The notes beneath the pieces are model-generated. The model had not been told where the DNA came from, did no database searches, and saw only the letters and a list, made by a program, of their open reading frames with translations. The translations under genes and the position numbers were made by a program. Positions 1 to 63,263 of a stretch of 64,000 nucleotides of DNA are shown in pieces. Source of the DNA: a virus; IMG/VR virus record IMGVR_UViG_3300047994_000087, positions 1 through 64,000 of that record, one strand, 5' to 3'. Positions within the stretch are counted from its first letter, which is position 1, and every line of letters begins with the position of its first letter.

Positions 1-7
1 CCATGAA

Positions 8-424
8 GTGAGATTTCTTGCTGCGCAGACTAAGGACTCTGACAAGAGAAAGGCTGATACAGCTAACAAGCCTAATGACTTTCTCTTTGATGGTGACAAT
101 ATCAAAGGTGGAAGACTTCTAGTTCTGTGCGAAGGCGCATGGGATGCGATCAAGATCAACTCCGCGATGATTCCCGGAGTGTCGGCCACGGCATTGTACG
201 GAAAAGTGCTGATGCCAAAACAAATGACTAAGCTAATTGAAGTGTCTCAGGGCTATGACAAAGTGGCTATTGGTCTGGATAAAGACGCCTATGTAGATTC
301 ATTGAAGTTGCGTGATCGACTGCAATGGTATGTGCCTTCAGTGACTATAGCAACTCCAAATGACAAAGACTGGGGAGTCATGAAGCAATCAGACATAAAG
401 AAGGACTTGGTGGCCGTGTGTTAG
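8..424 (+). CDS. DNA primase, Toprim domain (probably 5'-partial; frame is open to the window edge)
   Basis: LVLCEGAWDAI and AIGLDKDA Toprim motifs; overlaps the DNA polymerase start. Confidence 0.8.
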   Translation: MRFLAAQTKDSDKRKADTANKPNDFLFDGDNIKGGRLLVLCEGAWDAIKINSAMIPGVSATALYGKVLMPKQMTKLIEVSQGYDKVAIGLDKDAYVDSLKLRDRLQWYVPSVTIATPNDKDWGVMKQSDIKKDLVAVC

Positions 425-9831: not shown

Positions 9832-10392
9832 TTAGTTTTCCGTGGTTTTCTTACGCTTCTTACGTGCTCTACGGGCGGCAATTTTGCCAGGTCCTTTGTT
9901 ACTGGCCTCTAGACTCATTACATAGCAACTGCCGCACATACCATTTGTTCTCGCTTCCCTATCTATGTGTGGACAGTTTGTGGCGTAGACTATGGCCCTA
10001 GGCATGGGAGGGGGAGCCGGTTGTAGCCCGTTTACCTTCACAAAGTCGTAGTGGTCTTGGAGGTTCTTTAACAATGATATGCCTTCGTTTGTTGGAAAAT
10101 CTAGTTTATTCTCTACCAATATGTTAATGGCGTCTTCTATGTTTATCGAAGCAGATCGTAGTTTCAAAAGATGCTTTATTCCACGATGTTTTCTGTCTAG
10201 TAGGCCAACTACCTCAAGTATCTTCAAAGCATCATCGAGAGGAAAAGGATGCTTCCCTATTAAGTATCTGTTCAAGGTTTGGTAAGACACACCAGTTTTA
10301 TCAGCCAAGTCCGAATTGCGCCAATAAGGGTCCATGCTGTAGAAAATGGTTTGTAGATCTTCAGCAATGGCATATTTGGGTTTTTTGGGCAT
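9832..10392 (-). CDS. XRE-family HTH regulator with C-terminal Cys/His motif
   Basis: SDLADKTGVSYQTLNRYLIG HTH; CPH..ARTNGMCGSCY; start MPKKPK at 10392 preferred. Confidence 0.7.
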   Translation of the reverse strand: MPKKPKYAIAEDLQTIFYSMDPYWRNSDLADKTGVSYQTLNRYLIGKHPFPLDDALKILEVVGLLDRKHRGIKHLLKLRSASINIEDAINILVENKLDFPTNEGISLLKNLQDHYDFVKVNGLQPAPPPMPRAIVYATNCPHIDREARTNGMCGSCYVMSLEASNKGPGKIAARRARKKRKKTTEN

Positions 10393-10516
10393 AATAAACT
10401 CTCTTGATTTTATACCAACTGTACCGATATTATCACACATGTAGTTATCAGTAAAGCCTAAACACATACGGTGCGAGCATTGCCAGTCATTCACGCAATA
10501 TAGCCATTAGATATGC

Positions 10517-15509: not shown

Positions 15510-18500
15510 CTAGCTCTCAATAACGCGAACGTTTCTAATCATTGGGGTGAGGAAGGTCTGATCTGACGCCAACACCAACTTCACCTTGACTGTCTGGTGC
15601 AGATCTCCTGACCCAGAGTCGTATTGATAGTGTAGTTGAGTGAAAGTATCGTTTATGAAAAGAGTGTCGGCTGTGATGAGCGACATCCCGCCGGTCGGAT
15701 TGTTGTTTGTTGTTGGTCCAACATAAGACCCACCATCCAATTTGACATACGGAGAAATGCTGCAACCACCGGGTATGGAAGTTTCTACATATACGTCCGT
15801 GTATCTACCGGATGAAGATGGCAATGAAAATGTACGATGCAGATAAGCACCAGATGCCTGGTAGATAAATCCAATCAATTCAGGATTGTCTATCAGAACT
15901 GGGCAAAGAGTACCATCTGCGCTATTGGTCAAGACTACTCTGTACTGAATGGTCTGTTGCGCGAAGCCAAGATCAAGCTCTACGGTAGGCGTGCACGTAT
16001 TCCACGTATTACCAGCGTCAGTGGAGTATTGGAAAATAACTTGCGTGCCATCTCCAAGCTCTTTGAACGGGGCGGAGAACATGAACGTGCATACTGGGGA
16101 GCCAAAATCTTGAGTTCCCAGAGTTACAGTCGCAGTAGGGTTAGTGAACTGTGCATAGTTGATATTGAACTGAAGATCTACACCGGCTAGCACTGACCAA
16201 GACACAGCATCAGGGGACTCTAGGGCCACACCGGTAGCTGGGTTAGTAGTGATAAGAAGGTTAGAATTAACATCCTTGCTTCCTAGTTGTGCAGTCCATA
16301 TGCTTGCAGCATTGTCGTTAGTCAATACAACGAAGGCATACTCAGTCCCACCTTGCAAGTAAATAGGCTTAGGCATTGGAAAGTTGGTAGCTTCTGTGGT
16401 GCTGGTTATGCTGCTGGCTTGCAGCCAACTTGTGCCAAGGTAAGGTCCGGTAGGAACACCAGAAGTAACTTGAGATATTGCAACAGCTACAGGGTTAGCT
16501 GGCAGCACGGCGAAGAATAGATCTACTGAAGACAAATAACCGTCATTTACTGGTGTGAATGTTTGTGCAAGAGGGTCAGTGGTTCCAGTAATGGACGCCA
16601 TGAAGTCTTTCTGTGGGAATCCAAAGTAGCCACTCTGTGCAATTATCAAAGCTGCGTTGGCTGCGATGTCGGTAGAAGAAAGATTGACTGCATTCGCTAT
16701 GTTGGATAGAACAGTGCCGTTGACCACAGTTTGTAGCTCTGTGTATGCAGCATAAACTGAAAGACCAGCAATCAAGTCATCAACCGTAAGGGTGACACCA
16801 TCAAACACTGATTCTGCAATCGCGGAGGCAATAACGTGAGCACATGAAGTAGCTGCCCACTTATTAATGATTACCCAAGTAGCGAAGCTTGGCTTGTAGC
16901 CTTCAACCACAACTTCATCATAAGGACCGTAGTAGACGTTTTCTACCTGAGTACTATTCTTGGAAATTGACGGCAGTCCTAGAGTTTGTGCCAGAGCATA
17001 GATAGGAATTCCTGTTCCAGACAGGCCAGACACAGTTGGTGCTTTAGGAGGTATTGTGACAGTGATGTCTACCTGCTCCATGTTCGGAGAGGCGTTGTAG
17101 ATCACGCTAGCATATGACACAACTCTGTTTGAAGTTGGTAGTGACCCACCTACGTGACCATAGAATTCAACTTGGTTAGAGCCAGGGATTACAGTAGGCG
17201 GAATAACAAATGACGCTGTCCAGTTACCGTTATTATCCGCATTTACGCAGCCAGGGAAGTTTGAATCTGTGCTTGCAGCAGTAGACCCGGTTGGAGTTAA
17301 GGCAACCACTTCTCCGTTGAACGTGCACTGGATTGACTGCTCATTGGCAGTGAACACTGATCCAGAGCAAGTAATGGTACCACCACTAGGAGTGTTGCCT
17401 GTCAGCAGAGTCTGTGTGTTTGTCGTTACTGTAGCCCAGGCATTGTTCTGGGTAGTAGTGTTAGTAGACAATACAGTTGCATTGTTCAGAGGGTTATTGC
17501 CCGTCGAATCTGAAACTGCATCTGTCCAGCCGGTAGGAGTGGCCACCTTAGTGATGAACCAAGGATTGGTTACTGGAACACTGCTAGATGAGCCTAACTG
17601 AGCCGCCACCGGAGTAGTCGGAGTCACGTTAGCTAGAAGCTTAGCGTTTTTAACGTTATTGACTTTCAGCTTGGTGTTTTTGTTTACTGTAGTCAGATTA
17701 ACGTCTTGAACCATCTGGGCCACGAAGGTATGGCTCAATGTAACTTGGCAACGGGTATTTACCGCGCCGTATAGGTTTATGACACGTGCATTACTTGCGA
17801 AGCTTTGCTGAACGGACACTGCTTCTGTGAAGGTCGGCACCCAGGTTCCAGCCATGTTTGTCGCATCAGACGAACTAAAAGAAGGAGACTGGGTAGTCTG
17901 AGTTCTAGGCAGAGAAAACGTTCTAGACAAGAAGTCGAACGTTCCCGCAAAGTCAGGGTCGCCTTCATCAACAAGGTCAGGGGTAGACAGGTTGTCGGCA
18001 AAAATGCCAAGCTTGTCGGTGGGCGTGGGCTGGTTCTGTGCATTTGCAGCAAGCTGGAATTGTGCATCATCGTACAGAAGATTCTGTATGTTCTGGTACA
18101 TGGTGCGTAGATCGGTAGTTAACAGAGTCTGGTTCTGGAAGTTCTCTCTAACAACTTGAGTAGATCTAGCCTCAGCTGGAAGGATGAACTTACAGATAGG
18201 TAGATAGAAGTTAGAAATAGGAGCGGCTGTTGGGTTGGCATCTGGAGTGCCTGGCAGGATAGCGAGTATTCCATCCTGTCCCCAGGCCAGTACGTCTATT
18301 CGTGGCAGAGAAAATGAAAAATCAACGTTGACTTGGCTGGAGTTGACCGGCTGATTACCCCCGACCACGTCAAAGGATATCTGGCTTGTGTAATCTACGG
18401 CCAGGCCTGTCGGAGTCAAAGTAGGCGTGCTGTCAAACAGTTGGTTACCTAATGCAGAGACAAATGAGTCTCTAGACACATAGTCTCCTTCAGTAGTGTG

Positions 18501-47491: not shown

Positions 47492-49327
47492 TTATTGTTG
47501 GACCTCATCATCGTCTTCTACTTTATCATCACCAGGCTCTGACATAAATTGATCTAGATCCTTACGATTCGGGTCTACATTAGGGTCAATAGACTGCACT
47601 TGCTGCGCTGTCTGTACTTGCTGATTGAGAGACAATTGCGCCATTACTCGTTTCATAGTTGCAGGGTCTGTTTTGAAGAATACGGCGCCGTCTGCCAGAA
47701 TACTGAACTTATCCTGAATCCATTTTATAAGTTCTACCGGGTCTATAGCAGCTGCAACAAGAGGATTGCTCATTGCTTTTGCCAAAAAATCTAGGCTCCT
47801 TCCACATATTTCCTGTTTTGCATCGTCAAACTCCAGCTTCTCAAGCCCACTTAGGTCGACTAAAGACTGAATAAATTGAATATCAAAGTCCTTGTTAGTG
47901 ACTGTCATTCCTGTATTAACTAGGTGTGCAAGCACGATCTGACGCAATCCCTTGGATAGAGCCTTCTGTATGCTTGCCAGGCGTCTGGTGTACCGGCTGA
48001 ACATTCTTAACTCTTGTACTTTGTCTGTTGTGTTGGAGCCAAAAATAAGAGAAGGAGGTATACCAATAGAAGACATGATGATAGCTCTCAAGCTATTTGT
48101 GGCATTCAAGATATCGTCAATGGGCTGGCTTGCTCTCACGTTGAGAGGGTCCAACCCGCCTTTCTCATCACTGAAGATTGGCACAACACGCAGTCTACCA
48201 AGCACTGTCATAATCTCAGCAAGGGAGATCTGATTGGTGCGGGGATCTATGCCAGTAGGTACGTTCAGTAGTTGTTCATATCGCTTGATAGCAGCAATGA
48301 CTTCATGAGGAGGTGTGTTAGCGGGCATTCTCATGCCTACCAGCTGCGTCTGCGTGATTTGATTCATCTTAGTCGCAGGCATGAGCTTCTCTAATACCTG
48401 GAGTTCTCTGATCTTCTCTATAAGGTTCAGGAACATAGGTGTTCCTATACGAACATAGTCAGGCAGCTTGTCTTTGACTGACTGAGGTATCTTGTCGAAG
48501 CCAGGATCAGTCCAGCCCCTATTCAGCTTGTTCTGGAGACATATACGGTGCTTCTGTGTGCCTATGCAAAAGTGAGCGTAGGCAGTGGCCGGAAGGATCT
48601 TCCACTCACGCCCTTTTAACTGAAGGTATCTGGTAGGAATGCCCTGCTCATAGAAGGCAACCAGGTTTAAGGGGTCTACGTCGTCATGAACTCTAACAAC
48701 CCCTTTGCCATTTTCTATTTCCAGGCGGACAGAGTACTCGCCTAGGTCTATTAAATCTCGTGTTATGTCCTCCAGCAGATTGTTCATGTCCACTGTATCC
48801 ATAAGCTCATCAATGGCTTTCTGGATCTTCTTGTCCTTTGCTGTAATGCGGATGATCTGCCCACGCTCGTTAGAATTAAGCACGTCCTCTTTCATCAGGT
48901 CAAGGATAGTGCCAACTATATAGAATCTGCGCACGTCATCAGTAGTGTTCAGATATTCTTGACGGGAGTTGACTGCGTTAGTCCAGATAGTGATGAGGGA
49001 TGTCCCAAGGTCCCATGCGCCTTTGCCTACAAAGTCCATCAAGTTCTGTTCCTTGGCATAGCCAAGCTTCATGATGTCCGCACCGGAGAAAGATCCAGGA
49101 ACTCCTTCGAATATATTGGTAGGAAAGTTCTGTAAGTCTAGACCAGAAGCAGTGCTAGTGTCCTTCCTGATCTTGAACAAGTTCTCTACTAGTTTTGCCG
49201 ATTCAGGAATGGAGAACCCTTGTCGTTGGAAGTGTTCTATTCCTATTTGAGGACCTATTGACGTAGGCTGTTCGCTGGGATGCGGGCCAGGAGTAAACCA
49301 GGACTTAAACCAATCTTTCCAACTCAT
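47492..49327 (-). CDS. Portal protein (gp20-like)
   Basis: 611 aa heading the head cluster; SSIGIPPSLI, RMFSRYTRRLASIQKALSKGL. Confidence 0.85.
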   Translation of the reverse strand: MSWKDWFKSWFTPGPHPSEQPTSIGPQIGIEHFQRQGFSIPESAKLVENLFKIRKDTSTASGLDLQNFPTNIFEGVPGSFSGADIMKLGYAKEQNLMDFVGKGAWDLGTSLITIWTNAVNSRQEYLNTTDDVRRFYIVGTILDLMKEDVLNSNERGQIIRITAKDKKIQKAIDELMDTVDMNNLLEDITRDLIDLGEYSVRLEIENGKGVVRVHDDVDPLNLVAFYEQGIPTRYLQLKGREWKILPATAYAHFCIGTQKHRICLQNKLNRGWTDPGFDKIPQSVKDKLPDYVRIGTPMFLNLIEKIRELQVLEKLMPATKMNQITQTQLVGMRMPANTPPHEVIAAIKRYEQLLNVPTGIDPRTNQISLAEIMTVLGRLRVVPIFSDEKGGLDPLNVRASQPIDDILNATNSLRAIIMSSIGIPPSLIFGSNTTDKVQELRMFSRYTRRLASIQKALSKGLRQIVLAHLVNTGMTVTNKDFDIQFIQSLVDLSGLEKLEFDDAKQEICGRSLDFLAKAMSNPLVAAAIDPVELIKWIQDKFSILADGAVFFKTDPATMKRVMAQLSLNQQVQTAQQVQSIDPNVDPNRKDLDQFMSEPGDDKVEDDDEVQQ

Positions 49328-49360: not shown

Positions 49361-49906
49361 GTGCAAACAAGAAGCCGTTATACTTTCACGCAGGTTTTCC
49401 AGAACACATTAACAGTAGGCATATTATGTGGAGAAGATCTACGAATAAGGATGGTTACTTTTATGTCAAATGTAGTTGGCTCATCTAGATGGGGAAACAG
49501 CTCCGATAAAGCCTCTAAGGCAGCCGCTGGATGGTGGTCTGATATAAGCGACACAAGAAAGCGTGTGCTAACGGTCAATAGCGGCATAGACGAAATTACG
49601 CCTGATGTGTTTGCTACGATCAAGAGGGACTTGGAAGACAGGAAGATTACTAGTCTTACAGCTGTGAAGATTCTATCGACCCTAAGTACCATCGCTAACA
49701 AACATGATGCAATCGCATTAGCGAAGTACAAAGAGTTAATAAATGCAGGCACCGAACGTCCTACAGAAACTGAAGCAGCTGCAAAAGGTAAGAAGACTAG
49801 TAAGCTTACCGGGCAAGCTAAGAAGGATGCTCAGAAGGCTATGGAAGGTACTCTGGTCGAGCTTACGCAGTTGGCTATAAAGAAGAAACAAGGCACTGAT
49901 GCTTGA
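49361..49906 (+). CDS. Probable terminase small subunit (true start likely ATG 49451 or 49463)
   Basis: Helical ORF overlapping the terL start; position only. Confidence 0.45.
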   Translation: MQTRSRYTFTQVFQNTLTVGILCGEDLRIRMVTFMSNVVGSSRWGNSSDKASKAAAGWWSDISDTRKRVLTVNSGIDEITPDVFATIKRDLEDRKITSLTAVKILSTLSTIANKHDAIALAKYKELINAGTERPTETEAAAKGKKTSKLTGQAKKDAQKAMEGTLVELTQLAIKKKQGTDA

Positions 49907-51845
49907 TGAGGAATTATTCTCTCAGTTAAGCGAAGAAGCGCAGATAGTAATACGCAACATCTGTCCAAACGCTACCTTTGATGAAGCTATAGAGATACTG
50001 TCCGACATGGCGGAGTTTGAATCTCCTCCCCCGACTATCGATGAGTTCCTGGATCTTCCATATTATCTTGGACATATCGGTCCTGAGATATTTCCGTTCT
50101 GGAGAGAGCAGCTCAGGATAATCCATCCTAGCCCCTACTACAGTCCATTCGAAATAGTGGTTGTGTCAGGCTCTACAGGTGGTGGCAAAAGCTGGTGTTC
50201 AATCATATCTTTGTTATACGAAATCTGCGTGTTCTTACACCGGAGAGATGCTCATGAACATTTTGGCGTAGGGAATGATGGACAAATATATGTTGGGATG
50301 TGTAACAACACACTGACTCTGTCCAAAGATACGCAACTAAAGAACTTCTTTAACATGTTCAATAAGTCACCATTCTTTAAGGACATGCAGGCCCAGAAGG
50401 CAAAGTTAGTTAAGCCTACCAAAGGGCTTCTAGATCTCAACTTACCGTACAACATCAATCTTCTAGCTGGGTCCACAGCGCAGCACTTCATTGGCCGAGC
50501 TGTTATGAATGTACTGGTATCAGAACTTAATGCCATGACCCGGCAAGGTGGTCAACAGGCCTCTAACGTTATATCAGAACTTGAGGCTAGATTGTTCACA
50601 CGTTTCCACCGAGGAACGAAACTGCCTCGCCCCGGTAAGATTTACCTTGACTCATCAAAGAAAGAAACGACTGGCTCCCTGGATAGTTACATTGATAGTA
50701 AGAGGGGGAAGAAAAACGTACATATAATTGAGGCGCCTTTCTGGAAGTTCACTGAAGGTACTGACAAAGATCACAACGACAAGAACCAATTTTTCTATGT
50801 GTTCAAGGGGAGCCGTACTGAAGATCCACGCATGCTTGACTTGAATGACCCTGATGATCAAAATGTACCTGAGTCATTAGTGTTGAAAGTACCCGAAAAT
50901 TTGCGTCCGTTTTTTGAGATGGACGTAGTCAACGCCCTGAGAGACTTGGGCGGTGTGGCCACATCTTCATCAGGTAACTTTATCTCCAGCGCAGAAGCTA
51001 TTGCTGACTCATTGTGCTTACCTAGTCGGTCTAAGAAAGAGGTCATAAAGCTTGATCTCCATGATGACTCAGACAAGCTTATAGACTATGTAGACCTGGC
51101 TGACTTGGACAGGAATGCTGTGTACTACATGCACCTCGATTTATCAAAGAATAGGGACCGCACAGGGATCTGTATGCTCAGAGTCTCGGGCAAGAAACAA
51201 CTTGCACGTTTTGACCGTAGTGAAGGTCTAACCAAGATGTTAGAAGAGAATGTCTACAGTGCGGACGTGTTGCTGGCATTAAAAGCAAAACCAAACCAAC
51301 AGGTTCCTATTTACAAGATTGAGGCATTTATCTATGACCTTATTCACGCAGGTTTCAAGATTGGGGGAGTTACGTTTGACCAATTCGGTAGCTTAGACGT
51401 TATGCAGCGCTTGAACGCCAAGCAAGTGCCAACAGAGTATCTATCAGTAGATAGGCCTAGACAAGCTTATGACACGCTCCGTCAAACACTGATGGAAAGG
51501 CGTATCAAGATTGCTTGCCACCCTCCAGACGATCCAACTCGCGCCTCAATAATTGAGAAAGAGCTTAGGGAGCTTATAGACCTGGGTGACAAGATAAACC
51601 ACCCTGACGAGACTGAGCACAACAAGGGCGAGTGGGTGCGTCCATCAAAAGACTTAGCTGACGCTCTCTGCGGCGCCCTGTGGAACTGCATTAACCTGAC
51701 GACTAACCACACAGTGCATGCAGTAGCTTTAGAGACTTACATGGATGCTCTGGAAGATTTGACACTTCCAACAGATCCCATTATGGACGACATTCTGCGC
51801 GGTGGTTTTTCACATATACAACAACCAGGCAGAGGCACTTGGTAG
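49899..51845 (+). CDS. terL: Terminase large subunit
   Basis: GSTGGGKS Walker A, LDSS coupling motif, MHLDLSKNRDRTG, TFDQF, KINHP, SKDLADA nuclease motifs. Confidence 0.9.
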   Translation: MLDEELFSQLSEEAQIVIRNICPNATFDEAIEILSDMAEFESPPPTIDEFLDLPYYLGHIGPEIFPFWREQLRIIHPSPYYSPFEIVVVSGSTGGGKSWCSIISLLYEICVFLHRRDAHEHFGVGNDGQIYVGMCNNTLTLSKDTQLKNFFNMFNKSPFFKDMQAQKAKLVKPTKGLLDLNLPYNINLLAGSTAQHFIGRAVMNVLVSELNAMTRQGGQQASNVISELEARLFTRFHRGTKLPRPGKIYLDSSKKETTGSLDSYIDSKRGKKNVHIIEAPFWKFTEGTDKDHNDKNQFFYVFKGSRTEDPRMLDLNDPDDQNVPESLVLKVPENLRPFFEMDVVNALRDLGGVATSSSGNFISSAEAIADSLCLPSRSKKEVIKLDLHDDSDKLIDYVDLADLDRNAVYYMHLDLSKNRDRTGICMLRVSGKKQLARFDRSEGLTKMLEENVYSADVLLALKAKPNQQVPIYKIEAFIYDLIHAGFKIGGVTFDQFGSLDVMQRLNAKQVPTEYLSVDRPRQAYDTLRQTLMERRIKIACHPPDDPTRASIIEKELRELIDLGDKINHPDETEHNKGEWVRPSKDLADALCGALWNCINLTTNHTVHAVALETYMDALEDLTLPTDPIMDDILRGGFSHIQQPGRGTW

Positions 51846-57075: not shown

Positions 57076-59814
57076 TTAACCAGAACAGGACTCACATTCT
57101 GCTGCGGTGTCGAAGGTAACGCTTCGACCTGTTCTGATAGGTATTGTACGCATGTAATAGAGGGTCTTTAGCTTGTTGCGCCATGCCGCTAAGTGCACCT
57201 TATTAACATACTTCCGTGAGGCCTCCGCTGGAAAAAACAGATTCAGTGATTGCGACTGGCACACAAATTGTTGACGGTCAGCAGCCAGTTTGATCAAGTG
57301 CATCTGGTTTATTTCAGCTGCTGTTTTGAATACGTCTTTCTCCCAGTCATCGAGACAGTCCAGGTTCTGCACACTGCCCCCATCGTTTAGGATCTGAGAC
57401 CACCATTCTCTAACATCTCTTTCGCGGTTTGCTGTTCTTACACATACTCCACCACCAGGAAGTAACAGATCTTCTGGATACAGCTCAATGGCCTTCTCCT
57501 GCAACACGATGTCTAGCTGCTTATTCTTCATGGTGAGAGCGCCTGACACTGTCTTCTGTACAAAGATATTGGTCGACCATGGCTCTATGGACGGACTGGT
57601 GCCTGCTATGATCGCCGTGCTTGCGTTCGGAGCAATAGCTAACATATGGCTGAAACGATCTTTCTTCAGTCCCTCAGCTGCCCCTCTTTCAACAGCCAGA
57701 ACTTCATTAGCTCTGATCGAGCATTCCTTTATATAGGAAAACATCTGAAGATTCATTCCAATGGCAGCAGGAGTTCCAACTGGGATCATGTGAGACTGTA
57801 GGTAAGAGTGGAAACCCATGGCCCCCAGTCCTATAGATCGCTCCTGTCTAGCTGAATAGACAGCTTTGGACAGTTGAAGAGGGGCATTGTTTATGAAGTC
57901 TTGTAGGACGTTGTCGAGGAACTCTATAGCGTCTTCTATAAATCCAGGGGTATTCTTCCACTCGTCATACTTCTCCAGGTTGACGCTAGAAAGGCAGCAC
58001 ACAGCTGTTCGGTCTTCATTAGTTGGAAGTGTGATCTCGACGCAGTTACCGGCCAACACACCATTAAATATACCTTTATGCTGAAGAGGTTCATTGAAAC
58101 AATAAGTAGCGTCATAACGCCCTTCATCCGTTATCTTTTTAACTTTAACAAACTGCTCCGCATTTCTATTAGGAACATGCTCTTCTAGTTGAATACGTGT
58201 CGTAGTCATCCCCAACTTTAGGAGCTGCAAAATACCGTTAGCACCAATAAGCAGTCTATGAGATTCCCTACAATCAAAGAGAGCGGACCCCCCGTGCCCA
58301 TCGGGCATTAACCTTCTTCCAGCTTCCTGTCCGTTTGTTACCTTACTGCTGACTCCAAGCGTCTGAAGCATCAAACGAACGTCGTTAATAAAATCTAGAT
58401 TTACAGAATGGATTTGCAAAGCAGGTGTTTTGCCATTGAGGCACAGACAACCATCTGAGTCTAATAAACCTGCGAACCAATCCAACCTAGATTTTATGGA
58501 GTAACGAAAGGGAACAGAGTACTTTTCATAGGGTTTAACCAGCACACGAGTCCTATCTTGCTCCGGTTGGTATGACTGCACAGAGCTTGTTGCCAATCGA
58601 GGCAACACGGATAGCTTGACTCCATATAGGTCTATATGCTTTGATCCTTTGACATTGTCTGAACCATCTCCCGTATAAAAACCTTGTGTGTATGCATCCT
58701 CAAGCTCTTCAGTAAATTCAATGACTGGGTATGTACACTTCTGTAACTTATCCCCTGGTTTAAGGTCTTTAGCATCTACAACATGAAGACCGAGTTTATT
58801 CAAGCCAGTTCCTCTGAAGTAACCGGTTTGAGTGTGGAATTTATGGTACTCAGTGCATTCCAGCGTACTGCCATCGCTAAATTCCACCTTAATGAGTTTT
58901 GCACCATCTGACGTTTTCTCTATTCGGGACTTAGAGAATTGTTGTCCGTTCCATACTTTCATTTGCTTACCGGCAGCATCTGATATTTGAATCCAACCCA
59001 TGTCAGTGAGTATCTTAGTCTCAGGGGCAACGCAAAGATTTGAACCGTTGATCTTCAGTCCTTGCTCCTTTAAATCTGGGTGCATATTGCGGTTGCACTC
59101 ATCAATGAAAACCAGATAGGGCTCTCCTGTTTGTGCACGTGTCTCTAAGATCTCAGACCACAGATCGCGTGCCTGAACCACCTGAGTCACTTCTTTAGAG
59201 TGTGGGTCTATAAGCGCCCATTCGTCTCCAGCTTCTACGGCTTCCATAAAGGCATCGGTTATTACTAGGCCATGGTGCATGTTCAAATTCTTTCTATGCA
59301 CATCACCTCCGGTTGGTTTACGCATGCTGACAAATTCAAAAATTTCAGGGTGCCCAACGTGCAGAAAAGCAGCATGTGCTGCTTGCCTAACTGATCCTTG
59401 GTTGCACGCCAGGGTGTAAGAGTCGTCTACGTGGAGGAACTGAAGTGCACCTGTAGACACTGTGCCACGAGAAGTCTTCTGACCAGCTGAGCGGACATCT
59501 GACCAGTGGCTGCCAACGCCGCCACCGCTTAGGCCCATCCACATAATCTCTTCAAAGTGACTAGCAAGGCCTTCTCTAGAGTCAGGAACATAGGTCAAGA
59601 AACAACTAATAGGAAGTGCGCGATCAGTGCCCCCATTAGCCAAAATTGGAGAGGCTGGTATTAGCCACAAGTCTTCAAAGTACTGGAGTAGTCGTTTGGA
59701 ATGAGAGGGATTACTTCCGTAATACTTAGCGACTCTTCTAAAAATGTCTTCTGGTGTCTCATCTCCGACAGTGTAGCGTCCTTGTAAAACTGTGCGGGAA
59801 TGAAGGTCGAGCAT
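57076..59814 (-). CDS. nrdA: Ribonucleotide reductase class Ia alpha subunit, no ATP cone, intein-containing
   Basis: PISCFL, GGGVG, GSNL|C.EI, AIAPNAS, KTLYY, C-terminal CESCSG. Confidence 0.95.
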   Translation of the reverse strand: MLDLHSRTVLQGRYTVGDETPEDIFRRVAKYYGSNPSHSKRLLQYFEDLWLIPASPILANGGTDRALPISCFLTYVPDSREGLASHFEEIMWMGLSGGGVGSHWSDVRSAGQKTSRGTVSTGALQFLHVDDSYTLACNQGSVRQAAHAAFLHVGHPEIFEFVSMRKPTGGDVHRKNLNMHHGLVITDAFMEAVEAGDEWALIDPHSKEVTQVVQARDLWSEILETRAQTGEPYLVFIDECNRNMHPDLKEQGLKINGSNLCVAPETKILTDMGWIQISDAAGKQMKVWNGQQFSKSRIEKTSDGAKLIKVEFSDGSTLECTEYHKFHTQTGYFRGTGLNKLGLHVVDAKDLKPGDKLQKCTYPVIEFTEELEDAYTQGFYTGDGSDNVKGSKHIDLYGVKLSVLPRLATSSVQSYQPEQDRTRVLVKPYEKYSVPFRYSIKSRLDWFAGLLDSDGCLCLNGKTPALQIHSVNLDFINDVRLMLQTLGVSSKVTNGQEAGRRLMPDGHGGSALFDCRESHRLLIGANGILQLLKLGMTTTRIQLEEHVPNRNAEQFVKVKKITDEGRYDATYCFNEPLQHKGIFNGVLAGNCVEITLPTNEDRTAVCCLSSVNLEKYDEWKNTPGFIEDAIEFLDNVLQDFINNAPLQLSKAVYSARQERSIGLGAMGFHSYLQSHMIPVGTPAAIGMNLQMFSYIKECSIRANEVLAVERGAAEGLKKDRFSHMLAIAPNASTAIIAGTSPSIEPWSTNIFVQKTVSGALTMKNKQLDIVLQEKAIELYPEDLLLPGGGVCVRTANRERDVREWWSQILNDGGSVQNLDCLDDWEKDVFKTAAEINQMHLIKLAADRQQFVCQSQSLNLFFPAEASRKYVNKVHLAAWRNKLKTLYYMRTIPIRTGRSVTFDTAAECESCSG
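58045..59034 (-). mobile_element. Intein (330 aa) with LAGLIDADG homing endonuclease in NrdA
   Basis: Starts CVAPETKILT, block B CTEYHKF, GFYTGDG and AGLLDSDG, ends GVLAGN before extein Cys; removal restores SNLCVEI. Confidence 0.93.
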
Positions 59815-61192: not shown

Positions 61193-61222
61193 TTGACGGC
61201 TTAATCGCTACTCTGCTATTAT
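61193..61222 (+). promoter_or_regulatory. Sigma70 promoter with extended -10, probably leaderless
   Basis: TTGACG-18 nt-TATTAT preceded by TGC; ATG 61229 starts 7 nt after the -10 with no RBS. Confidence 0.55.
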
Positions 61223-61228
61223 CGTAAC

Positions 61229-61641
61229 ATGAGTAAAGAACAAAAGATGCACACACGCATTTAAAAATACATGCTTTGGGTCTTTGTTGGACCTGTTATC
61301 AACGCTACAAGAAAAGCTCAGAGTATGTAAACCTCAGACCACGACAGCCTGAAGTTCCTATTTGTGAGCACAAAAATCGGGCAGTCCGCGCCAAAGGATT
61401 GTGTGGCTCATGCTATGACAAATCAATCTACAAATCAAAGCCTAGAAAACTTATGGTAAACAGTGCATGTGGGCACTTAGTGGCAAAGTCAATTAACGAC
61501 AAAATGACAGAAATTGTTGAGGATCTAAGAGCACTCGGTAAAGACAAATGTTTTGAAATTTTAGACGTATTGTTTATAGATGAAGATTGTTGCTGGTTCA
61601 ATATGTATATTAACCATTGGGGGCGCTTGTCGAATAGTTAA
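61229..61641 (+). pseudogene. Frameshifted Cys/His-motif protein (endonuclease-associated zinc-binding repeats)
   Basis: MSKEQK, RCTH and KIHALGLCWTCY lie in three different frames; intact CEH..AKGLCGSCY in 61276-61641. Confidence 0.45.
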
Positions 61642-61666: not shown

Positions 61667-61700
61667 AAGGCTTAGAGACGAGTAATGTCCTCTAAGCCTT
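61667..61700. terminator. Hairpin terminator downstream of the tRNA 3' fragment
   Basis: AAGGCTTAGAG...CTCTAAGCCTT 11-bp inverted repeat. Confidence 0.7.
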
Positions 61701-61733
61701 ATTTCTTATTCAGTTTTGTCGGGCACCGCCGCT

Positions 61734-61754
61734 GGTGTACAAACAAGTGTACAA
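61734..61754 (+). repeat. Candidate integrase arm-type site, left copy
   Basis: GGTGTACAAACAAGTGTACAA, identical to 61982-62002. Confidence 0.75.
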
Positions 61755-61779
61755 AATATCGATGCTGTCCCGAAAGTCT

Positions 61780-61822
61780 TGGGCGGTGAGAGACTCGAAC
61801 TCCCAACCCCCTCGGTGTAAAC
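61780..61822 (-). tRNA. 3' half of tRNA-Val(TAC), interpreted as the att core (not a complete tRNA)
   Basis: Minus strand GTTTACACCGAGGGGGTTGGGAGTTCGAGTCTCTCACCGCCCA: anticodon loop TTTACAC, T-arm GGGAG-TTCGAGT-CTCTC, acceptor 3' strand; 5' half absent. Confidence 0.85.
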
Positions 61823-61981
61823 CAAACGGGCGACTTTTGTCGGTGTTTTCAAGGGTCGCCCTTGCCGGAAAGTAGCATCAAAGCATATCTATTACATATG
61901 CGGAGATAGTGCTTTAGTGGGTAATTCAGAGAGCCAGATTAACAAACAGACATCCTCTTTGCAAGGATCAGTGGTATCACA

Positions 61982-62002
61982 GGTGTACAAACAAGTGTAC
62001 AA
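61982..62002 (+). repeat. Candidate integrase arm-type site, right copy
   Basis: GGTGTACAAACAAGTGTACAA, identical to 61734-61754. Confidence 0.75.
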
Positions 62003-62033
62003 GTCGAAGCCGACCCGCAAGAGAAGGAAGAAA

Positions 62034-63263
62034 GTGAAAGACAACAAGCTAGCCTTCACTCAGGGCTTCATGGAGCGCCTAGAAGCAGATAAGGTCCGCC
62101 AAAAGTTTTGGGACACTAAAGTCAATGGGCTGATGGTTGAAGTGATGCCTTCGGGGTCCAAGATCTTCCGCTTTCGTAGGACTATCAAAGGTAAAATTGA
62201 AACCAGTACGATAGGTCCCTACCCGTCCATCTCCCTGGAGGAAGCTCGTGACGAAGCGGTACGTTTGTCAGCTAAGCTTGTAGACGGAGCATCCTTTATA
62301 AACAATCGGCAGGCTGCACGAGATGAGTTAACCCTTGAGGGTCTGTTCGATCTGTACTTCAACCTTCACGTTGAGGGGGCCTGCGAGACAGCCGATGAGC
62401 TTCGTAAGGAGTCTAAAAGGTATTGGAGTAGACTGTTGCCCTTGAAGCTATCGGCCATATCCTCATTGGATATTCAAGAGCAGAAGGCTAGGTTGGCCAA
62501 AGGCGAAAAGGGTAAGACCCACAAGCACAGGTCTAACAAGGCCCTTGATCTGGTTAAGGCCGCTTTCGCATGGGGCGTTCTTAATGCAGGAGTGAAGGAG
62601 AACCCAGCCAAAGGGGTGAAGAACTTTACTACTCAATCCCGTGAGCGCATCATCGCACCTGAAGAGTATGAGCCTCTCATGAGGGCCATCGCCTGTTATC
62701 CAGATAAACGGATCAGGGACTTCTTCTTTATGTGCCTATACACAGGTGCTCGTTCTGGCAAGGTCATGTCTATGAAGTGGTCTGACATCGACTTCACTCT
62801 GGAACGTTGGTTGATTGGCAAGGATAAGAACAAGGACTCCAATCATGTGCCCTTGTCGGAAGCTGCCCTCTCAATCCTCCGTGCACGTTATAAGGAACGT
62901 GGAGCTATCCAATGGGTCTTTCCTGGAGGGCAAGTGCATCAGCCGACCACTAACCATCTAACAGAACCTAAATCCGCATGGAAGAAGATTCTTAAATGGG
63001 CTTCTGGCGAAGTACCCAACATAACAGACCTACGTATTCACGATCTGCGCAGATCACTTGGTTCGTACATGGCCATGGCAGGGGAGAACACTGCCACCAT
63101 TCAGAAGGTACTGGGACATAAATCACTACAAGCCGCTAGTCGCTATCAGCGAGTGAACAACACAGCTGCTCAAGATGCTACTAACAAGGCAGTCAATTTG
63201 ATGTCCATTATGGCTAACTCCTCACAGCAAGATAAAACCAAAAACAAAGAATCCATATCCTAG
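62034..63263 (+). CDS. int: Tyrosine integrase with N-terminal arm-binding domain
   Basis: WDTKVNGL..V.PSG.K.F..IGPYP.ISLEEAR arm domain; YTGAR, KDKN, HDLRR, LGH, SRY catalytic residues; GTG 62034 preferred over 61917. Confidence 0.93.
   Translation: MKDNKLAFTQGFMERLEADKVRQKFWDTKVNGLMVEVMPSGSKIFRFRRTIKGKIETSTIGPYPSISLEEARDEAVRLSAKLVDGASFINNRQAARDELTLEGLFDLYFNLHVEGACETADELRKESKRYWSRLLPLKLSAISSLDIQEQKARLAKGEKGKTHKHRSNKALDLVKAAFAWGVLNAGVKENPAKGVKNFTTQSRERIIAPEEYEPLMRAIACYPDKRIRDFFFMCLYTGARSGKVMSMKWSDIDFTLERWLIGKDKNKDSNHVPLSEAALSILRARYKERGAIQWVFPGGQVHQPTTNHLTEPKSAWKKILKWASGEVPNITDLRIHDLRRSLGSYMAMAGENTATIQKVLGHKSLQAASRYQRVNNTAAQDATNKAVNLMSIMANSSQQDKTKNKESIS

Follow-up and report, generated by a model that had tools for sequence, protein, structure and literature searches.

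A putative attP site and tyrosine integrase directed at tRNA-Val(TAC) in a large phage with a Gp23-type capsid

Satellite phage P4 targets a tRNA gene and has repeated arm sites on both sides of its core, and the phage module described here is arranged alike. The anticodon-centred ('A') class accounts for 2083 of the 3919 islands in Islander (Hudson, Lau & Williams 2015, PMC4383910, citing Williams 2002). In T7-like cyanophages the integrase and attP were required for integration, which occurred at low frequency and gave no stable lysogens (Shitrit et al. 2021, PMC8776855). We analyzed a tRNA-Val(TAC) fragment and the tyrosine integrase beside it in a 64,000-nt window, bases 1-64000 of the 146,741-bp IMG/VR record IMGVR_UViG_3300047994_000087; coordinates are those of the window, and those marked G000 refer to the whole record. 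An earlier reading of the letters of this DNA (the original prediction) had proposed an attP site of a temperate phage with a T4-like virion. On the sequence evidence, it is quite probable that the fragment and the integrase form a working-type attP/integrase module belonging to the phage itself; the integration module is real and probably functional. The evidence comprises sequence identity, architecture, the integrity of the integrase, conservation of the layout across the integrase family and the attL/attR products of related elements.

The tRNA-Val fragment, arm-type repeats and integrase

The putative attP core lies on the minus strand at 61780-61822 and consists of the 3' 43 nt of tRNA-Val(TAC) (gene positions 30-72) without CCA. 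From 61822 to 61780 it reads G-TTTACAC-CGAGG-GGGTT-GGGAG-TTCGAGT-CTCTC-ACCGCCC-A, comprising the last base of the 5' anticodon stem, the anticodon loop TTTACAC with the anticodon TAC, the 3' anticodon stem, the variable loop, the T arm, the 3' acceptor strand and the discriminator A. The core is identical at 43 of 43 positions to the same part of the 72-nt host-type tRNA-Val(TAC) gene. The preceding TTTGG does not complement CGAGG, which puts the break in the gene at the loop, and neither the 5' half of tRNA-Val nor a second copy of the core was found anywhere in the 146.7-kb genome. These findings bear out the proposal of a tRNA-Val(TAC) 3' half broken at the anticodon loop; they also agree with the proposed lack of an encoded CCA, which is missing from the host gene as well. 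ARAGORN and Rfam (E up to 10) reported nothing at the fragment, as would be expected of half a tRNA, and we did not count this against it.

The core is flanked by the two copies of a perfect 21-nt direct repeat, GGTGTACAAACAAGTGTACAA (repeat D1), one on each side. The copy at 61734-61754 is the predicted P' arm-type site, with two GTGTACAA units at 12-nt spacing, and the copy at 61982-62002, 160-180 nt from the core, is the predicted P arm-type site and overlaps the 5' end or the upstream region of the integrase gene. Read on the tRNA strand, the P' units are two copies of TTGTACAC at +25 and +37 from the tRNA 3' end, and the P side has two copies of TTGTACAC at -181/-169 from the loop. The unit GTGTACAA occurs four times on its strand in 146.7 kb, each time within the two 21-nt repeats. 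A 43-nt exact match combined with a perfect 21-nt repeat is far beyond chance. We propose that 61734-62002 represents a complete P'-O-P arrangement, that is, an attP.

The strongest point in favor of this proposal came from related elements, in which the repeat sequences co-vary from one element to the next and their positions are retained, as expected of arm-type integrase binding sites. In the island on contig G002:C8, described below, the attL end has two copies of GTTGATAC next to the full tRNA on the P' side, at +26/+37, the one at +26 in the form GTTGATACA; the P side carries two at -139/-128 beside the integrase gene at attR (as CGTTGATAC, they start at -140/-129). The metagenomic locus L111 has two copies of CCCCCTACA at +26/+37 and at -152/-131, and L087 shows a pattern analogous to those of the phage, G002:C8 and L111. 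In P0002, the closest relative of the integrase, VHKQVHK takes the place of the phage VYKQVYK, which implies that its repeat has one base changed and occupies the same position.

The integrase gene (61917-63263, plus strand) is an intact open reading frame (ORF) of 448 codons from 61917, and Pfam identified it as a tyrosine integrase of the P4 type with N-terminal arm-binding and catalytic domains. The catalytic domain Phage_integrase (PF00589) scored 87.8 bits against a cut-off of 27.1, and the N-terminal Arm-DNA-bind_3 domain (DUF4102, PF13356), by which the P4-type subfamily is recognized, scored 54.7 bits (cut-off 27) over residues 59-133. Residues R257, K282, H353, R356, H379 and Y388, numbered on the 426-aa database gene call, were invariant in an alignment of 21 related sequences. 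The start site is uncertain among three candidates, 61917 (448 aa), 61983 (426 aa, the database call) and a GTG at 62034 (409 aa), the last of which aligns with the shortest homologues and has AAGGAAG upstream. From the core to this shortest plausible start is 211 nt, in agreement with the claim of a complete tyrosine integrase about 210 bp from the tRNA fragment. It is the sole PF00589 gene in the phage genome. The closest relatives by identity were P0002 (61%), P0003 (57%) and P0004 (55%), whereas the integrases of deposited phages were all less than 30% identical; single-protein scans of IMG/VR with the integrase and with P0003 as queries found no close relative.

We examined the ends of the record for the state of the genome. 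The record is graded complete by CheckV, and window positions 1-228 overlap G000:C1:146514-146741 over 228 nt at 99.6% identity, from which it follows that the assembly closes on itself to give a genome of about 146.5 kb. IMG/VR lists the record as linear, yet the contig is closed or terminally redundant. A single att copy in a circularly closed genome points to the attP state, and the phage genes and promoter dyads on both sides and the flanking arm repeats agree with the unintegrated state that had been proposed. By its identity to the host tRNA from the loop to the 3' end, the site would be an attP of the anticodon-centred class, able to rebuild the gene; the features of this class (a single copy, an adjoining integrase and repeated arm sites on both sides) were all found.

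The same observations bear on the possibility that the integrase and the fragment lie at the boundary of a distinct island or satellite that had inserted in the phage genome. This integrase family is typical of satellites and islands, and the phage tRNA array could in principle offer a target. However, an insertion would leave a full tRNA and a displaced fragment, or two repeats, and here there is one fragment and no 5' half; the array has no tRNA-Val, and the P and P' repeats flank a single core as in an attP, unlike an attL or attR. The phage-wide dyad at 61202 and 64971 further limits any foreign part to at most about 3 kb. We therefore rejected an island boundary, on the single core, the missing 5' half and the two-sided arm repeats, and regard it as very improbable.

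A decayed phage tRNA gene lying by chance beside an unrelated recombinase, or a chimeric assembly, is scarcely conceivable. Phages with tRNA arrays do accumulate tRNA pseudogenes, and ARAGORN found none here. Against this reading, the identity to the host is perfect over exactly the part that an element would carry, the gene is broken at the loop just as it is in all the relatives, and the site is 19 kb from the phage tRNA array. That array has 19 genes for 17 amino acids (G000 81010-86025), none of them tRNA-Val. Chimerism is disfavored by self-closure and by a uniform GC content (46.6%); GC3 of the integrase gene is about 1.1 sd above the mean of the remaining phage genes. As a separate observation, valine is an amino acid without a tRNA in the array, while attP carries the 3' half of tRNA-Val.

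With the module taken as the phage's own, integration would proceed along the following route if the phage copy is active as predicted. The terminally redundant DNA would circularize; as the phage has RecA and a gp46-type protein, recombination between the redundant ends is plausible. In the intasome, the N-terminal domain of the integrase would occupy the GTGTACAA repeat pairs of both arms and the catalytic domain the core, and strand exchange with the host tRNA-Val(TAC) would take place at or beside the anticodon loop. The predicted crossover is the loop TTTACAC (61815-61821) or a position next to it. The phage 43 nt would replace the host 3' half and an intact tRNA-Val would be rebuilt at attL, composed of the host 5' half, the phage 43 nt and the P' arm, with a hairpin about 80 nt downstream. 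At the other junction, attR, the integrase gene and the P arm would be followed by the host 3' half that was displaced and then by the flanking host DNA.

That hairpin (61667-61700; inverted repeat I4) has an 11-bp stem and lies 80 nt past the tRNA 3' end on the P' side. Its folding energy is -17.4 kcal/mol on the plus strand (z -4.5) and -18.1 kcal/mol on the minus strand (z -2.3), with the better U-tail on the plus strand. We consider it a candidate bidirectional terminator for the plus-strand gene 61276-61641 and possibly for the restored tRNA, and it may primarily terminate the former. The hairpin that had been described as a terminator for a restored tRNA thus exists, and its assignment to the tRNA is plausible but, given the better U-tail on the plus strand, not specific. 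A second stable hairpin (61828-61861, plus strand; -19.7 kcal/mol, z -2.8) lies directly on the integrase side of the core and may be an insulator or terminator ahead of the integrase gene, or a site for an accessory protein.

Host assignment and related islands at tRNA-Val(TAC)

To identify the host, we scanned one genome for each of 185,579 prokaryotic species for the exact 42-nt core. Five matches were recovered, all of them in three metagenome-assembled genomes (MAGs) named Candidatus Obscuribacteraceae or Obscuribacterales; two were complete 72-nt tRNA-Val(TAC) genes and three were 3' fragments. The bases that follow the tRNA in the host, AGCTTTTCGGGGA, resemble those in the phage, AGACTTTCGGGA. 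The comparison of the core with bacterial tRNA-Val genes that the original prediction had suggested thus gave an exact host match, in line with its expectation that the 43-nt core can identify the host. An independent clue to the host is the phage RecA (4718-5761; Pfam RecA, 451 bits), which is 78-85% identical to the RecAs of Obscuribacter, Obscuribacterales, Melainabacteria and 'Cyanobacteria bacterium SZAS'; a few of the named top matches are labelled Oculatellaceae or Trichormus instead. The GC content also fits, host loci, with L031 among them, ranging from 45 to 50%. By these sequence matches, the host is identified at the family level as a member of the Obscuribacteraceae (Vampirovibrionia/Melainabacteria), which are uncultured, non-photosynthetic relatives of Cyanobacteria.

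The core was present within 3 mismatches in 71 of the 101 Obscuribacteraceae genomes sampled, 26 of which had at least two copies, indicating that tRNA-Val(TAC) is a busy integration site in this family. Two genomes, G035 and G095, each carry six copies of the tRNA-Val 3' half, some at contig ends, which suggests multiple or tandem islands at tRNA-Val.

Homologues of the phage integrase (34-38% identity) adjoin partial tRNA-Val copies in the same orientation on G001:C237, G002:C26 and G002:C8. On G002:C8, a full tRNA-Val (75767-75838) and a partial copy (93899-93940) bracket an 18-kb island that encodes a Toprim/DUF927 primase-helicase, an HNH endonuclease and three integrases, and is a P4-like element. 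On G001:C237, the full tRNA (18393-18464) and the displaced fragment (1053-1094) are 17 kb apart. Both are true attL/attR pairs of related islands. The full and displaced copies on G001:C237 differ at two positions of the T stem, and likewise on G003:C9, where a 4-kb remnant (G003:C9:532489-536765) lies beside a full tRNA-Val and the displaced fragment has a different T stem. These differences indicate that the intact gene holds the 3' half donated by the element, so that the crossover falls on the 5' side of the T stem, in the anticodon loop or close to it.

The layout extends to metagenomic relatives. Loci L034 and L036 (47% identity) and L061, L087 and L111 (about 33-36%) have the same fragment upstream of the integrase gene, starting exactly at TTTACAC, and none of these fragments is a full tRNA. 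Across the wider integrase family, nearly every member has the 3' piece of one tRNA or another upstream (Met, Val, Asn, Thr, Lys, Arg and others), in most cases 200-400 nt away.

Some further features of the host junctions were observed. At the G002:C8 attR (L029, 19884-19940), the integrase-side flank perfectly complements the 15 nt after the loop, CTCCCAACCCCCTCG-TTTACAC-CGAGGGGGTTGGGAG, forming a 15-bp inverted repeat centred on the presumed crossover, and the phage version of this repeat is weak. The apparently native host flank 3' of the displaced fragment in L011, L025 and L029, conserved in three MAGs, has tandem TGCAACT/TGCTACT units at about +28/+39. These P'-arm-like units suggest that an older element left a fixed relic there and that elements have accreted in tandem at tRNA-Val.

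The presence of integrase relatives on host islands with Toprim/DUF927 primase-helicase genes raises the possibility that the phage module is a captured and disused relic of a P4-like island, carried passively. It would also fit that no capsid relative of the phage has an integrase and that the three small ORFs to the right of the gene are unknowns. Against it stand the intact 448-codon ORF with all its catalytic residues, the core matching at 43 of 43 positions and the perfection of both 21-nt repeats; a decayed module looks different, as exemplified by the integrase homologue of the G003:C9 remnant, which is broken by five stops. We consider a relic unlikely. The probable source of the phage module is the pool of P4-like islands residing at tRNA-Val in Obscuribacteraceae.

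Gene content and lifestyle of the phage

Pfam placed the major capsid protein in the Gp23 family (51.8 bits). Matches in PHROGs identified sheath, baseplate wedge and head protease proteins, and Pfam also gave T4_baseplate, GPW_gp25 and BW3TFN; a gp19-like tube protein scored below the Pfam cut-off. We judged a T4-type virion set to be present (Gp23 capsid, gp21-type protease, gp18 sheath, gp19 tube and gp6/gp25/gp53-type baseplate). The candidate gp20/gp17 ORFs (47492-49327 and 49899-51845) had no Pfam match, and the former had no PHROGs match either. The best phage matches of the DNA polymerase, at 28-30% identity, are annotated as DNA polymerase I or family A, and not as the gp43-type family B polymerase of T4-like phages. 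The proposed T4-like character thus stands for the virion, on the Gp23, gp18, gp19, gp6, gp25 and baseplate families, and does not extend to the polymerase, which is of family A.

Among cultured phages, Rhizobium phage RHph_TM30 (Kleczkowskaviridae, Cuauhnahuacvirus) has the nearest capsid, at 40% identity. A closer relative, P0124 (52% identity), is on an 85-kb contig, and the capsid relatives in a collection of 5.8 billion proteins were on contigs of at most 198 kb. A single-protein scan of IMG/VR with the capsid protein gave no close relative; a profile scan of IMG/VR with the capsid relatives gave distant ones (at most 35% identity) and one 8.7-kb fragment at 54%, none with an integrase.

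Several observations weigh against a working integration module of the phage's own. No tyrosine integrase was found in seven capsid relatives, RHph_TM30, Ralstonia phage RP13 and five distant IMG/VR relatives, four of the five being at least 90% complete; the module is on this count a lineage-specific, recent acquisition. When all phage ORFs were compared by tblastn with the host islands and 103 integrase-bearing loci, the integrase was the sole phage gene shared with host islands, apart from one weak polymerase match. A search for capsid homologues (E <= 1e-10) that covered 104 genomes of Obscuribacteraceae and 401 of the class found none, while its positive control, the query finding itself, succeeded; the attL/attR products seen for related islands were not found for this phage itself in the host genomes examined. 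A Pfam search of 173 ORFs of at most 330 aa recognized no excisionase (HTH_17/Xis), CI, Cro or antirepressor family. The single HTH_3 (XRE-type) protein, 50 kb from the integrase gene, is borderline in Pfam at 23.5 bits (cut-off 23). This 220-aa protein (9832-10494, minus strand; helix-turn-helix (HTH) at residues 61-97) shows no significant resemblance to the P2 C repressor and is a candidate regulator or repressor.

A second candidate component of regulation is a 20-bp dyad, TAATAGC-N6-GCTATTA (0-1 mismatch), which occurs seven times, always equally far from a TTGAC -35 box: 61202-61221 in the window, and G000 64971, 67383, 68516, 77206, 109471 and 116484. The first two bracket the att/integrase module. 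The dyads are candidate operators of a dimeric regulator.

The claim that the phage is temperate, including the suggested prophage copies in MAGs, found no support: no such copy was seen among the 104 family and 401 class genomes, no excisionase was recognized and there is one weak HTH protein. Stable lysogeny is not supported, and the evidence, which is thin, points against it. A truly temperate lifestyle, in which this 147-kb phage with its T4-type (Gp23) capsid would lysogenize Obscuribacteraceae by way of tRNA-Val(TAC), has in our estimate somewhat less than an even chance.

Another reading, which we hold as plausible though rather doubtful, is that the module works in a phage that is not classically temperate, with integration rare and transient within lytic infection. 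The T7-like cyanophages provide the precedent (Shitrit et al. 2021, PMC8776855), and low-frequency integration without stable lysogens could by analogy hold here. The missing prophage copies and the lack of recognizable immunity or excision genes fit this reading, as does a large lytic-type gene content (RNR, polymerase, RecA, 19 tRNAs and a SAM lyase). On the other hand, prophages are often lost from MAG bins and the repressors of novel phages are often missed by Pfam; the dispersed, promoter-overlapping dyad and the one XRE-type protein could form an immunity circuit, and the perfection of both arm-site sets suggests regulated, directional recombination.

Other phage genes were noted around the module. 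The gene for the large subunit of ribonucleotide reductase (RNR; 57076-59814, minus strand) is interrupted by a LAGLIDADG-type intein. To the right of the integrase gene are three small ORFs without an assigned family and the phage-type genes speD, a MoxR-like ATPase and a VWA/DUF2201 protein. The small-ORF region at G000 61.2-139.4 kb encodes S-adenosylmethionine (SAM) lyase, speD (AdoMet decarboxylase), ThyX, a PLD-like nuclease and ATP-grasp R2K proteins.

Significance and comparison with known systems

The core gives a hard, sequence-level host assignment of a complete large phage to Obscuribacteraceae, a lineage without a cultured phage system; no Obscuribacter phage carrying an integrase was described in the literature searched. 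A second point of interest is that a myovirus with a Gp23 capsid has an integration module that is intact; the seven capsid relatives examined lack one, and neither 'temperate T4-like' nor 'T4-like prophage' occurs as a phrase in the literature searched. The results also mark tRNA-Val(TAC) as an integration hot spot across Obscuribacteraceae. Integrases with different arm sequences at kept positions offer a natural set for studies of arm-site specificity, and the defined attP/integrase pair could be tried as an integration tool for Obscuribacteraceae. If the phage is truly temperate, it would add a lysogen-forming phage to a virion lineage considered strictly lytic and would give the first sequence-anchored phage-host pair for the uncultured sister group of Cyanobacteria, and the TAATAGC-N6-GCTATTA dyads would be operators of an immunity repressor.

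In its virion, the phage compares with RHph_TM30, which has a Gp23-family capsid 40% identical to that of the phage, an adjacent head protease gene and a large myovirus genome. It differs in that RHph_TM30 has no tyrosine integrase, a host of a different phylum and a 207-kb genome. In combining lytic-type content with an integrase and an attP of about 40 nt identical to a tRNA, in a host of the cyanobacterial phylum, the phage resembles the T7-like cyanophages P-SSP7 and S-TIP37. These are, however, 45-kb podoviruses of marine picocyanobacteria, for which integration without lysogens was shown experimentally (PMC8776855), and the present case is built on sequence.

The integrase has the Arm-DNA-bind_3/DUF4102 and Phage_integrase architecture of the P4-type integrases found in satellite phage P4 and many genomic islands, and P4-like primase-helicase genes occur on the host islands that bear its relatives. 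What sets the phage element apart is its arm-site sequence, GTGTACAA, and its target, tRNA-Val(TAC). As in the 'A' class of Islander, the element holds the 3' part of a tRNA from the anticodon loop, and integration would regenerate the gene and leave a displaced 3' fragment. Unlike the members of that class, the carrier is not a small prophage or island but a 147-kb Gp23-capsid myovirus, and the host lineage is Obscuribacteraceae. The recombination system is of a textbook kind and so teaches no new mechanism; what is unusual is the carrier and the host.

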